From Trichinella spiralis (lineage: Eukaryota), in assembly GCF_000181795.1 (NCBI RefSeq), contig NW_003526940.1:1151527-1215526 (forward strand): a stretch of 64,000 bases of DNA, written 5' to 3'. The position numbers were made by a program, and so were the translations under genes. The notes beneath the pieces are model-generated. The model saw nothing but the letters and a program-made list of their open reading frames with translations. It did not search any database and had not been told where the DNA came from. The number at the start of each line of letters is the position of its first letter. Positions within the stretch are counted from its first letter, which is position 1. Shown here in pieces: positions 35,401 through 41,595 of this stretch.

Positions 35401-35743
35401 GATATAAAACCCAATTTGAAGCAGTTAAGTCTGGCAAATATTTCCTGTTCTATCAAGATACAAACTCACTTACTAATTTACCATTTTTTGTGTTCAATTT
35501 GTTAATTTTTAATTACCACATTTTATATTGTGTTTCACTTTGGTACAATAAAATACACAATAGCAATTGAAATTGTTCTTAAAAATGCTACTAATTAAAA
35601 AGCATAGAATGCGCAAGTTTATTGTATGCAAAAATTGAAATGCAATGTTTATTTGTACAAAATAATGAGAATATTTGAGCAATACGATACCTATTCATGA
35701 TGTTGTGTAATTATCATGTGACCATTTGTTCAACAAGTGTTTG

Positions 35744-37328
35744 TCAAAGTCGTCCGCTGTGCTTCAATAAAATACTCCAATATAAAAGGTTGAATACCAA
35801 AAAAATAGAAGGAAATATTATTCTTGCGTATTTATCAATGTCGCTAGAAGAGCAGCAATGATGGTTTCGGAATTTTTTTGTTGACAGTTTTTTAAATGAA
35901 TTCAAAGAATGCCGCTGAAATCTCGGATATTTCGGTATCGTTGTAGTGGACTGTGGAATTGCAAACGGATCTACCGGATGCATCCATGTTGATGCATTTA
36001 ACGACTGAAGAGAAACAAAATTATTATTTTATTTTCTAACCGAATAAATTGAATAAATAAATTTTACTCACCGTCGTGCTAGTCAGCTTGTCGCATTCAC
36101 ATGGCAGTTCCTCAGTTGTATTCAGTTGGCAAGATGTACTACCTAATTGCCATGGATTCGGAGATGTTTCATGCATTGGAGGTGGTAGACGATTCAGAGG
36201 TGTGAGCAATGAAGGACCTGCAGACATTTGAGCGTCTTCTTGTGCGACTTTTGCAAAAGCGTCTTCAATTTTTTTCTGTTTCTTTCTTTTGTCTTTGTAA
36301 GTGACAAAAGCATATTCAATAAGTGCACAAAATACCATTACGTAGCAGAAACCAAGATATATGTCTACAGCTTTGACGTAGCTTACTTTCGGCAACTGCC
36401 CATTAGTTGTGGTCATCAGTGTCGTCATAGTCAAAACTGTCATAATTCCTAATGTGACTCTAGCCGGAGCTGATTCACGACTTATCCAAAATGAAACCCA
36501 TGAGATCATTACTACCATAAGAGCTGGTTGATAAATTTGTACCCAGTAGAAACTTAAATTTCGAGAAAATGTCAAATGACAGGTTAACCTGGAATAATCG
36601 CCTAAAAAATAAAATGATTACTTTATAACATTTAATATTTAAAAAATCGTTACTTTTAGTTAAGCATATTTTAATATACACTGCATAATGCACAATTTTT
36701 AGATTATTGCTTGCAACAGGACTAATATTTAAACACATCACAATGAAAGCGTATTGATTATACAACATTACAAATAATGTTATCTTTAATACTGAATCAG
36801 AAATGGCAAATGAAATACGAATTATTAATCATGACACATTTGATAATTTAAGCCTGTTGATAAATGTCATATTGATGAACTTCATTTCTTATTAGTAGTT
36901 GTTGTTAGTTTCATAATATTTCTGTTGGTGATGGTGTCGCTTTCCATTCAAAAAACTACCAATAAATTGTTATTAAAAAAGAAAAGCAAAGATATAAATG
37001 AAAATGCTTCATTTCTTCAGAAACAAAATTGATTTAAATAGCAAAATTTCATTAAACTACTATTAAATTGTTCAACGTTACAAATAGATAAAAATTAGCA
37101 CCAATTTTTTAGCAGTAGTAAATTTTACGTGGTTAGCATTACATTAAGACTAAGCTATTTTTTTTTATTTTTGAATGCGCATATTACCTGTACTGAGCGT
37201 AATTTTTCGCTCAACTATGAATAAATCCTGTAGCTCAAACGTCGGTAGCTTACGAATTTCAGCATCAAATGTAACAGACTGGAATCCTTTCAGCCAAAAC
37301 AATCTTATATCAGCATCAGAGTAACCAT
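35744..37328 (-). CDS. unc-49: GABA-gated chloride channel C-terminal module 2 (UNC-49C-like), exons 37188-37328, 36072-36601, 35744-36004
   Basis: (Y)GYSDADIRLFW..LSTG/DYSRL, M1 [20 protein letters not shown]2 [18 protein letters not shown]3 AVDIYLGFCYVMVFCALIEY, M4 IDKYARIIFPSIFLVFNLLYW. It has no N-terminal or Cys-loop exon of its own. Confidence 0.85.
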
Positions 37329-37375
37329 CTATGAAAAAACTATTTTTTATACGCAATACAAAAAAATTGTAACTT

Positions 37376-37394
37376 TTTGTGAGCACCAGTTGAA
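37376..37394 (-). promoter_or_regulatory. Putative selector sequence upstream of the module-2 acceptor
   Basis: Plus-strand TTTGTGAGCACCAGTTGAA is complementary to 39552-39571 (12 perfect bp, 1-nt bulge, 7 bp). Confidence 0.6.
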
Positions 37395-37813
37395 AAAAGT
37401 ATCTCTTTGGCATTTTATCAAATTATTATATATTCAAGAAAGATGAGACAGTTTACATTATAGAATATGAAATGCAACTTGATTGCCTTGTTAAATAATA
37501 AAATGGGCACCTCGAATATTCGAATTCTATTTTTAAATTCTATTATGCCAGTAATGATAGTATTCAAGCTTTCTTTTTAAATAATTCAATGGAGTAAATT
37601 TTATAAAGATGAATAATAGATTCATATTCTACGGATTTAATCCCAATTTAGCACTTTTTCATAATATATAATACAGAAAAGTAAAACTTAGGCAATGAAG
37701 ATGATTGTTCTTCGCAATGACAATAAGCTCGATAATAAGGATGAATTTTTCACAATTTTTAACGTCCTGAAATATGTTGAAAAAGACATAATCGGTGGTG
37801 AAAAACTTCTGCT

Positions 37814-39305
37814 CTAAACTCTAGAAACTTTTTCATTAATTTCTTGTCGACTAATGAAAAAACATGAAATCCAGTAAACGGCGTTGAAAAACAAAAAAAA
37901 TAAAGGAAACATTATTCTTGAATATTTGTCGATGGATGACGGAGTGACGTGATGTAGCATGTGACGACGCAGTTTTGGTCGAGAGACAATTCGCATAGGC
38001 ACTGGGCGAATTTGATTCATGTCACAATCACATTCAAGCTGTGACATAGAGAGAGAAGGGCTCATATCGGCATTCGCAAAACGCTTAGCATTGGGTCGAT
38101 ATTGAGCTCTATTTTTTGCTGAAGAGGTATAAGGGTAATATGATGATCGGGGTGCAGATCCCTGTAAAGTGAAAAGGATTTATTAAAAAAATCAAATTAG
38201 TTATATTCATCAAGGAATAATCATGCGTGACACTTTCATATTAAAACATTTTGCTAATTCATAAGATTCATCATTTTATACTTTATTTGATTCATTAAGA
38301 AACAGATTTTTTTTCTGCTTGCTGGCTGATAAGATACGCTAAGCTTATATTAAGTGGACAATAAAAAACAAATTTATTTTATAAAATGTTGAAGCTTCTG
38401 CTTTTCATAAATCAAAATTACACATTTTCAAAAGTTATAAAAATATTTTGTAAACAATTTTTTTTCATTAAAAAGCAGCTAATTGTTTAAACGTTAATTA
38501 AGCAGTAACTATATATCGATTGTTGATAATTGTGAAAATAATAATGATAATAATTGAAGCAAATTATAAGAAGAAATAGATGAAGCAGCAACTTACAGAA
38601 GATACGAAAGATGCCATCATTGGATCGGCAGATGATAAAATCCCAGAAGAAGACAAAGGTGGAGGCATATGTTGAACAGTTTGTTGCTGCTTTCGGCGTT
38701 CTTGTTTCATTTTAACTTTTTTGTTCAAGTAACTAACGGCAGCATATTCAATCAATGAAGCAAAGACCATAACAAAACATGTCCCCAAATATATATCTAT
38801 AGCTTTTATGTAAGATACTTTTGGCAAGCTTGCATTAGTAGTGGTCATTAGTGTAGTCATTGTTAACACTGTTGTAACACCAAGAGCAACACGAGCAGGT
38901 GATGCATCACGATGAATCCAAAATGAGACCCAAGAAATGATGACAATCAGCATTGAAGGAATGTATATTTGCATCATATAAAATCCAATGTTACGCACGA
39001 AAACAAATTTTACATGGAGTCGGGAATAATTGCCTTAAATTAAAATTTTTGAAACAAACAAATTCACTATTTTATTGCTTTACATGATAAGTTTGTGTTA
39101 TTTTAAAGAAAACTATTACTATAATCTACATTTATTATTCATAGATGAATAAGTTAAAAGAAAAACATTTTACCTGTACTTAATGTTATTGTTCTATTCT
39201 TCATTGTAAAATGTGCCACATAAAATTGTGGTAAAAATACTTCGTCCATTGTTACAGTTTTGTTTTCAAGCCATCTATATTTTGTGTCTGCTTCAGAATA
39301 ACCGT
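37814..39305 (-). CDS. unc-49: GABA-gated chloride channel C-terminal module 1 (UNC-49A/B or Rdl-like), exons 39174-39305, 38597-39033, 37814-38161
   Basis: (Y)[21 protein letters not shown]1 [20 protein letters not shown]2 [18 protein letters not shown]3 [21 protein letters not shown]4 [21 protein letters not shown], with its own stop codon. Confidence 0.88.
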
Positions 39306-39551
39306 CTATAAAATGAGAACAGAAGTGTGTCACTGAAAAAATCTGATGCTACTTTGTTGCCAGCTTTTTTTGTGCTTCAACAATGTACAAAGCGAGCAGG
39401 GTGGAGGTAAACAAAAGTGAATACCGCGTTCAGCGGTTTACGAGCATTAAAAATGGGAAAAATATCATCACCAAAACTACCGTCTTACTGTAAACAGCGC
39501 TGAAACAGAACTAATTTTCTTATTCTCAGGATTTGACGTTACTGTGCAATA

Positions 39552-39573
39552 TTCAACTGGTGCACCACAAAGT
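39552..39573 (-). promoter_or_regulatory. Putative docking site about 50-70 nt downstream of the shared exon donor
   Basis: Plus-strand TTCAACTGGTGCACCACAAAGT pairs strongly with 37376-37394 and weakly with 39351-39365. Confidence 0.6.
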
Positions 39574-39625
39574 GATAAAATAAAAACGAAATCTACAATG
39601 CATGTGTCTAATTGTTTCTACTTAC

Positions 39626-39708
39626 AGCTTTCAATTTCCAAGGTGCATTCTTGGGAATCCAAAGGAAACAAATGTAGCAACATTGGACAAGATGCAGTTA
39701 CAGTTAAT
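39626..39708 (-). CDS. unc-49: Shared Cys-loop exon of the GABA receptor; upstream exons not visible (assembly gap follows)
   Basis: Encodes LTVTASCPMLLHLFPLDSQECTLEIES and ends in phase 1 (T|GTAAG). This joins either module as S-Y-G-Y (T|AC GGT or T|AT GGT). Confidence 0.9.
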
Positions 39709-39763
39709 CTTAAATATTAAATTGTAGTGTTGTTGATTTCACATAAAAATAAGAACAGATAAA

Positions 39764-39881
39764 NNNNNNNNNNNNNNNNNNNNNNNNNNNNNNNNNNNNN
39801 NNNNNNNNNNNNNNNNNNNNNNNNNNNNNNNNNNNNNNNNNNNNNNNNNNNNNNNNNNNNNNNNNNNNNNNNNNNNNNNNN
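39764..39881. other. Assembly gap (further gaps at 40849-40858 and 41383-41595)
   Basis: Runs of N. Confidence 1.
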
Positions 39882-39889
39882 AATGCTAA

Positions 39890-41198
39890 CGTTACGCGTT
39901 AGCTCGCAATTTCACTTAATTTTACGCATGATTTCTCGCATATGCCTTTGTCAAACATTGTTCGCGTTTCTCGTCACATCACATATGTTGGTAAAGGCGA
40001 TTTTAATACAAAGGAAAAATGCACAATTGACAAATTGTTCACAGTTGCAGCTTTCAAGCTAAACCAAGGAGTGACAAATACTAAATTGTTAGCATCTGAT
40101 TAATTTCTTGATTTTACTGGGAGTGTTCTATTTAAATCTTTCTTATTTCCAGTCCAAGAATTTTACTTTAATATTCACAAAGTTTCTTTCATTACGAAAC
40201 AATCAATATATGTATTTTTATACATGTCGATGAGGTTTGTGGTTTGTATGAAAAATCCTGCTTGACGTTCATACATTTCATATAAAATACAGTCCAACTT
40301 GATTAAGTGCATAAGATTTTGGCCGAAAAAAATTCCCTGTATTTAATTAAACGGTAAAATAATGGATAAGTGCACGGAAATTCTTTCGAAATTCCATGCT
40401 CAATTAACAAACTTAAAATGTAATTTGAAATGCAACATCAAACAGATCAGCTACATTATAGACGCTGTTTTTGATGCGGACAGTTTTAATATTTCGTTAT
40501 CATTGAAATATACATTGAAAGGTTGCAAATGGAAATGAAAACAGATGGCAATTTAAGTGTTCACCAACGCACTACCACCACTTTCATTCAGATGTTGAAA
40601 TAGAAAATTTACAATTTACACCAAATATATAAATAAATTTGTTTTTTGATTTGTAAATAATATTGCAGATTTTTAATTTTTTATTTAAATAAAATATACG
40701 AAGGAAAACAATAAATCTGTTGAACAGGAGCAAAAGAAACATTGGAAAGATTAAAGATAAAATTCGTTTGCAAACCAGAAAAATTTTCAGAGAACAGGCA
40801 GGAAAATCAGAAAAGTATTTCGGTGCTAACAAAAATTAGCAATTGCCANNNNNNNNNNGGAAGACCAATAAATCTGTTAGACAACGGAGCCAAAAGAAAC
40901 CCTTGGGAAGGATGAAAGGTACGTTTCCTTTGCAAACCAGAAAAATTTTTCAGAGGAACCGGGCAGGAAAATCAGAAAAAGTATTTCGGTGCTAACAAAA
41001 ATTAGCAATTGCCAATCTTAATTTTAACTGAGAACTGCACCTGTGGACAATTTATCACTTGTTAACTTTCCCTTTATATTAAAATTGCCATAACCAACAT
41101 ATGTGATTTGATGATGGGAAACGCGAACAATGTTTGACAAAGGCATATGCGTGAAATCATGCGTAAAATTCAGTGAAATTGCTAGCAAAAACGTAACG
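39890..41198. mobile_element. Non-autonomous long-TIR DNA transposon relic, probably Mutator-like (MULE)
   Basis: About 170-bp diverged inverted repeats (39890-~40063 vs ~41022-41198), e.g. GCATATGCCTTTGTCAAACATTGTTCGCGTTTC and its exact reverse complement. The interior has no intact ORF; a faint minus-strand FFGQNL..I.L fragment recalls the MULE FHFxQ region. No TSD seen. Confidence 0.75.
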
Positions 41199-41595
41199 CC
41201 TGGCTGTTCTTTATGTTGTTGTTGCTGCTATTGCCTACGAAAAATAAACATCACTACTTAACTTATCTTCTGTATCCTTTTTTCTGAACTATTACTATCG
41301 CATTCGATATCACCGTCACTTTCGCTCATTAAATTACATAGACATGACAAAAACTTACTATTGAAACGTGACTACTAAACTANNNNNNNNNNNNNNNNNN
41401 NNNNNNNNNNNNNNNNNNNNNNNNNNNNNNNNNNNNNNNNNNNNNNNNNNNNNNNNNNNNNNNNNNNNNNNNNNNNNNNNNNNNNNNNNNNNNNNNNNNN
41501 NNNNNNNNNNNNNNNNNNNNNNNNNNNNNNNNNNNNNNNNNNNNNNNNNNNNNNNNNNNNNNNNNNNNNNNNNNNNNNNNNNNNNNNNNNNNNNN

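Follow-up and report, generated by a model that had tools for sequence, protein, structure and literature searches.

The nematode gene unc-49 of C. elegans produces the UNC-49A, -B, and -C subunits out of a common N-terminus and three alternative C-terminal modules (as given in the portion of PMC8841521 available), and a two-module unc-49 locus, with B and C only, has been described in Dirofilaria immitis (bioRxiv 10.1101/2025.10.30.685166). Thus the shared-front, alternative-back layout is already known for unc-49, and a count of two modules is likewise not new. Related arrangements occur elsewhere in the superfamily. The nematode glutamate-gated chloride channel gene avr-14 has A and B splice isoforms with different C-terminal channel regions (accessible text of PMC8841521), and arthropod Rdl changes its loop F region through an alternative exon 6 (excerpted text of PMC2064938). 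The presence of unc-49 in Trichinella spiralis has also been reported (PMC3990606, in the part available, citing Williamson 2007), which limits the surprise of encountering the gene there. Our search for descriptions of clade I unc-49 isoforms covered openly accessible papers, with subscription papers outside it, and returned none.

The locus analyzed here is the Trichinella unc-49. It lies on the minus strand of a 64,000-nucleotide stretch of T. spiralis contig NW_003526940.1 (hereafter the window, to which all positions refer). Like C. elegans unc-49, it combines a common N-terminus with tandem C-terminal copies, is split in loop B, and has a putatively C-type copy with a 6' Met in last place. 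It differs in having two modules instead of three, in a module 1 that is neither clearly A nor clearly B, and in a module 2 that, unlike chromadorean UNC-49C, retains the PAR motif and 13' Thr. Trichinella and D. immitis share the production of two isoforms that have loops D, A, and E in common, along with part of loop B, while the remainder is module-specific. However, one D. immitis module is a true B and the other a derived C that has 6' Leu and confers no picrotoxin resistance, and they comprise six and five exons compared to three and three in Trichinella. The avr-14 gene resembles the Trichinella locus in its alternatively spliced C-terminal channel region but belongs to the glutamate-gated family, distant from both modules in our 80-row tree. 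Arthropod Rdl sequences are the nearest non-nematode relatives of the Trichinella modules, yet Rdl places short alternative exons on a single common pore and tail where Trichinella exchanges entire C-termini, and the CxC motif present in both Trichinella modules was missing from 4/5 RDL loops checked. The best PDB match was 9she_A (E 3.4e-106), apparently a honeybee-type RDL.

A single Cys-loop exon leads into two modules, both complete and made of three exons, and each reads in an open frame to a stop of its own. The shared exon (39708-39626, 83 nt) encodes the Cys-loop and the first half of binding loop B and matches Pfam Neur_chan_LBD (PF02931, E 4.6e-7). A 320-nt intron (39625-39306, GT..AG, phase 1) separates it from module 1, and this intron forms the first part of the 2297-nt intron to module 2 (39625-37329). 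Exon a of module 1 (39305-39174) encodes the remainder of loop B, loop F, and the start of loop C, and is 100% identical to the public Trichinella model P0001. Exon b (39033-38597) encodes loop C and M1-M3 and matches Neur_chan_memb (PF02932, E 2.9e-39), and exon c (38161-37814), which is spliced in RNA-like contigs, encodes the intracellular loop with CxC, M4, and the stop. In module 2, exon a (37328-37188) is joined to 39626 and again carries the remainder of loop B, loop F, and the start of loop C; exon b (36601-36072) encodes loop C, M1-M3, and the loop with CxC, also matches Neur_chan_memb (E 3e-36), and is 96-98% identical to Trichinella proteins; and exon c (36004-35744) encodes the remaining loop, M4, and the stop. 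The last exons of the two modules matched Neur_chan_memb at E 1.8e-5 and 3.1e-5, under the curated cut-off. Because hydropathy at a cut-off of 1.5 gave only three and two helices, the assignment of M1-M4 rests on Pfam and alignment.

All six introns are GT..AG. The shared exon meets either module at a phase 1 joint in the Tyr codon that follows the Glu-Ser of loop B, with loops D, A, and E on the shared side. The first intron inside each module is in phase 1 at the same codon, and the second is in phase 0 in both but at different positions within the M3-M4 loop. The spliced frames are open for 333 and 338 codons, each with a single terminal stop. Together, the phases, open frames, and Pfam matches bear out the first-pass annotation, which had described two three-exon modules with matching first introns and their own stops, both beginning in the phase that fits the shared exon. 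It had placed about 480 bp between them, and the spacer (37813-37329) measured ~485 nt and has stop codons in each of its three frames; it comprises the 3' UTR of isoform 1 and the 3' end of the long isoform 2 intron. There is no third module in the window, and a repeat search found likeness limited to the paralogous M4 and exon ends. We regard the architecture, one front half with two alternative complete modules, as real with near certainty.

The N-terminus that precedes the shared exon (158-172 aa) gave no match in the window, either by tblastn or by 6-mer peptides, an absence on which the first-pass annotation is silent. The expected site of the N-terminal exons is a 118-N assembly gap (39764-39881) that begins 55 nt upstream of the shared exon, and since a duplicated 150-nt piece lies close by and two further N gaps lie upstream (40849-40858 and 41383-41595), this gap is probably understated or mis-joined. 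RNA-like contigs extend from the shared exon to a loose end at 39710, which points to an upstream exon outside the window, and on its reverse strand the loose end matches the residues just preceding the shared exon in public models. As those exons lie outside the window, we used public Trichinella models for N-terminal comparison. Their identity was 68-71% to nine UNC-49 N-termini, 61-66% to seven rows that we assigned to RDL ourselves, and 57-64% to three rows that we take to be LGC-38-like. Identity and score both favored UNC-49 in all nine UNC-49 rows, and the N-terminal tree did not separate Trichinella between the UNC-49, RDL, and LGC-38-like rows. This N-terminal identity and the protein matches uphold the identification as unc-49 that was originally made from the DNA.

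Public gene models represent the locus in several ways. Some fuse it (P0001, P0007, P0012, and P0015), others are split or contain a module only (P0010, P0028, and P0210), and a third set (P0013 and P0374-P0377) is mis-spliced, with the N-terminus joined to module 2 and part of loop C missing. The expectation that automated annotation would fuse or split such a gene was therefore correct, and the present structure supplies correct isoforms for Trichinella and, by homology, for whipworms. Fused models with the same module pair were found in Trichuris suis, T. trichiura, and Soboliphyme. For Romanomermis, one model joins an N-terminus to a module-2-like end and another contains a module only, and no module-1-like Romanomermis model was seen in the searches made. 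There was no B-type module of a named clade I species among the best 120 of 1898 matches, and a 50%-cluster search gave no additional module-2-like sequence among the matches listed. Trichinella belongs to clade I, in line with the early-branching nematode host surmised at the outset.

Transcript evidence came from 8 of 24 listed runs that we compared with the locus. Five contig sets (X1, X2, X7, X8, and X9, from three studies with four organism labels) were RNA-like, a status inferred from exact intron loss, and two (X12 and X16) were DNA-like and unspliced. The alternative joints 39626>39305 and 39626>37328 both occurred in 5/5 RNA-like sets and in 0/2 DNA-like sets. In the contigs, each joint reached 29 nt into the shared exon, short of the 31-nt bar for bridging, an overhang that would be expected from a fork in the assembly graph. 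The joint to module 1 was also present in four raw reads of RNA run X18, with 62 nt on the short side, and the module 2 joint 36072>36004 was present in five raw X18 reads and in all five RNA-like contig runs. The joint 39626>37328 was absent among the 30 placed reads of X18, of which ~18% was scanned. First mates of X18 were almost all on the plus strand, consistent with minus-strand RNA. All five RNA-like runs also contained an unspliced 380-nt contig across the 320-nt intron, which fits slow splicing at the shared donor but may be plain pre-mRNA. One unspliced 8120-nt contig of the DNA-like run X12 covers this whole region, which rules out an assembly artefact as the source of the tandem layout. 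Separately, an apparent GC..TT joint at 36599-37186 was ruled out as a non-canonical intron or editing, with a SNP at 36600 in both DNA-like runs.

These joints support the proposal of one N-terminus that is spliced to either of two modules, both expressed. They also bear on whether module 2 could instead be a gene of its own with a truncated 5' end, a pseudogene, or a portion of a fused protein with two membrane domains. Fused and module-only public models exist, and a contig of one run continues past module 1, crosses the spacer, and reaches module 2, as such readings would have it. However, a direct joint of module 1 to module 2 was not listed in any of the eight runs, module 1 has its own stop, and all five RNA-like contig runs join the shared exon to module 2, which is conserved in Trichuris and Soboliphyme; this makes these readings very improbable.

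We consider it likely that one donor with a near or a far acceptor yields two subunits, the second probably of the UNC-49C lineage. Splicing from the donor after the shared exon to the near acceptor would give isoform 1, containing module 1, with the transcript ending in the spacer. Splicing of the same donor to the far acceptor, skipping all of module 1 (2297 nt) and requiring read-through of the spacer, would give isoform 2. Since isoform 2 needs this read-through, the two acceptors may compete with each other and with a weak spacer poly(A) site to set isoform choice. Such a site is weakly hinted at: module-1 contigs ended at 37651-37727 in 4/5 runs and continued to 37299, into module 2, in 1/5, and the spacer contains no AATAAA, with ATTAAA at 37641 and TATGAA at 37663 and 37626. 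Two AATAAA hexamers (35653-35618) follow module 2 and are likely poly(A) signals of isoform 2, and the furthest ends of module-2 contigs were at 35611 and 35642.

To place the modules, we aligned the region from loop B to M3 plus M4, excluding the intracellular loop. We assigned the A, B, and C labels by the order of the modules in fused models from Caenorhabditis that bear the name UNC-49; models from other Caenorhabditis species stand in for the C. elegans proteins, which are not in the trees. The B label was confirmed by P0171, which fits the published numbering of Haemonchus contortus UNC-49B (available part of PMC6287672). Both modules fell inside the RDL/UNC-49 group in the 54-row tree. 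Neither outcome that the first-pass annotation had named as fatal to its reading was observed: module 2 is spliced to the shared exon, and the modules do not group with unrelated channel families. Module 2 grouped with Romanomermis and UNC-49C in three data sets: at SH-aLRT 86 with 80 rows after 12 partial, chimeric, or redundant rows were dropped, at 96/93 (starred) in a careful tree of 54 chosen rows, and at 97 in a quick tree of 47 rows without the distant outgroups and three long rows.

Individual residues point the same way. Diagnostic columns shared by module 2 and C numbered six, the most of 21 group pairs, compared to two for modules 1 and 2. The 6' Met (codon 36443-36441) was present in 3/3 module-2 rows, 1/2 Romanomermis rows, 6/10 C rows, and 0/39 others, and module 2 and UNC-49C are both last in their locus. 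Orthology of module 2 to UNC-49C is therefore probable from these sequence comparisons. Under this orthology, the ancestor shared by clade I and chromadorean nematodes would already have had the multi-module layout, and with it the "one gene, several subunits" design of the nematode muscle GABA receptor. The M2 of module 2 has an intact PAR motif, -1' Ala, 2' Thr, and 13' Thr, and the 10 chromadorean C rows have PSR (-1' Ser) and 13' His or Tyr, so the order of events in UNC-49C would be 6' Met first and pore changes later.

An independent duplication of the C-terminal module in clade I, with convergence and long-branch pull accounting for the likeness of module 2 to UNC-49C, is disfavored and in our judgment improbable. 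It draws on several observations. The UNC-49C branch is long (1.3-1.9), a clade of modules 1 and 2 was not rejected on the full 54 rows (AU p 0.114), and the plain identity of module 2 was 58.5% to module 1 and 54% to A, with C at 49% ranking last of the nematode groups. The superfamily has further cases of tandem C-terminal parts, both in avr-14 (PMC8841521, as far as available) and in multi-core models (P0029, P0030, P0118, and P0135), and 6' Met can arise twice because it is also found in an unrelated rho-like subunit (P0293). The loop of module 2 is 133 aa compared to 63-68 aa in chromadorean C, and it scored at most z 2.1 against C loops, its best outside score being to a Plectus A (z 7.6). 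Against this, a clade of modules 1 and 2 was rejected (AU p 0.036) on a pruned set of 37 rows, 17 having been dropped after the trees were seen, in which module 2 with B was also rejected (p 0.036), and the grouping with C was recovered in all three data sets. The two loops of the Trichinella modules are unalike (z 1.3), and the split between the modules is old, since just 12/31 four-fold sites match.

The placement of module 1 is less firm. In M2 it has 2' Ala, 6' Thr, and 9' Leu, matching the majority of RDL and UNC-49A rows, with 2' Ala in place of the 2' Gly of UNC-49B. Its intracellular loop, which was outside the trees, reached scores of 92 with A and 77 with B, compared to at most 46 for C, 39 for RDL, and 35 for module 2. 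A loop resembling both A and B is what an undivided A/B ancestor would give, and it is also compatible with a slow B in a lineage that lost A. If module 2 is UNC-49C, we lean slightly toward module 1 standing for such an undivided A/B ancestor.

The same splicing and C orthology would also hold if the ancestor had A, B, and C and clade I lost one, so that two modules are a reduced state and module 1 is a slow true B (or A). This has the best trees behind it, which joined module 1 to B (support 47/28, and 48 in another tree) with no A+B clade in the free trees, as well as three diagnostic columns common to module 1 and B and none with A. Loss of A also has precedents in a Brugia malayi model with N-terminus, B, and C and in the B and C locus of D. 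immitis (bioRxiv 10.1101/2025.10.30.685166). However, support for module 1 with B is negligible, and module 1 with A, absent from the best tree (p 0.162), module 1 with A and B (p 0.123), and the A+B clade itself (p 0.306) were all unrejected, while the module-1 loop bears features of both. We therefore judge the loss of a module in clade I to be rather unlikely. The suggestion in the first-pass annotation that two modules are the ancestral state is plausible, and stops short of proof because module 1 mixes A- and B-like features and has no firm placement; we put it slightly below an even call.

Both isoforms are predicted from sequence to be subunits of a GABA-gated chloride channel. They have the RDL-like signature of Glu in loop B, Arg in loops C and D, Ser in loop E, the PAR motif before M2, and four membrane helices. 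The H. contortus UNC-49B residues E185, R87, D83, E131, H137, R159, Y239, and R241, reported as necessary for binding in the available part of PMC6287672, are kept. For this comparison with its table 2, loop D and E residues were taken from public models and the loop E Ser was aligned by eye. If the receptors of C. elegans and H. contortus are a guide, isoform 1 is predicted to form a picrotoxin-sensitive channel, and isoform 2 to co-assemble with isoform 1 and reduce picrotoxin block through its 6' Met. A 6' Thr to Met change has been suggested to underlie picrotoxin resistance (bioRxiv 10.1101/2025.10.30.685166).

The classical UNC-49C subunit gives no GABA response as a homomer and modulates UNC-49B within heteromers. 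The gate of module 2 is without the chromadorean C changes, so its subunit may work alone. UNC-49A is reported not to form a functional receptor (accessible text of PMC8841521), and our UNC-49A rows also carry standard pore motifs, which cautions against inferring stand-alone function of isoform 2. More speculatively, clade I may keep an ancestral two-module unc-49 consisting of an undivided A/B and an UNC-49C with 6' Met and an intact gate that works alone as a picrotoxin-resistant GABA channel. If so, UNC-49C began as an independent channel and became accessory only in chromadoreans. With correct isoforms in hand, the receptor becomes directly testable in oocytes. Nematode GABA receptors are a drug-target family on which piperazine acts (PMC8841521, portion available). 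The two isoforms diverge in loops F and C, in the pore, and in the intracellular loop, so their agonist sensitivity, blocker sensitivity, and localization could differ. In loop C, a Thr modeled as a GABA contact is Leu in both modules, a further caution on function.

Downstream of the shared Cys-loop exon (39708–39626, minus strand), an unspliced 380-nt contig spanning window positions 39276–39655 kept the intron 3' of that exon in all five RNA-like contig sets, those whose RNA status was inferred from exact intron loss. This contig may represent pre-mRNA or regulated retention. If translated, the retained intron would bring a stop after three codons and truncate the ectodomain. Other isolates carried a synonymous SNP at 36600, where exon b of module 2 (36601–36072, minus strand) begins, and for this reason the splice joint there seems non-canonical in the aligned contigs.

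Upstream of the shared exon, the region 39764–41595 contained three N gaps, and a stretch of ~150 nt was present as two diverged copies, one on each side of the 10-N gap at 40849–40858. This arrangement suggests a scaffold mis-join at the expected place of the unc-49 N-terminal exons.

Among public protein models from other nematodes, two from Romanomermis (P0031 and P0206) were both module-2-like, one with Met and the other with Thr at the 6' pore position of M2. Judging from these sequences, the Romanomermis lineage may have undergone an additional module duplication. In clade III and IV nematodes, a UNC-49A-like subunit was modelled as a separate gene (P0037, P0043, P0044, P0046, and P0202); it carries Leu at 6' and has an N-terminus of its own. 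In the M3-M4 loops compared, a CxC motif occurred in both window modules and most UNC-49 A, B, and C loops, and was not found in LGC-38-like loops or in 4/5 RDL loops.

Outside nematodes, the set P0118, P0135–P0137, and P0030 included RDL-like models from a psyllid and ticks with three M1-M3 cores in tandem and an annelid model with two. These tandem cores may be alternative pore exons.

Elsewhere in the window, a minus-strand dCMP deaminase-like ORF at 41598–42092 (Pfam PF00383, E = 2.1e-22) was intronless over that stretch and extended into an N gap. A protein kinase domain was detected in a minus-strand ORF of 542 uninterrupted codons (46230–47858), with Sir2, RRM, WAP, and APC8-like pieces among its neighbours.
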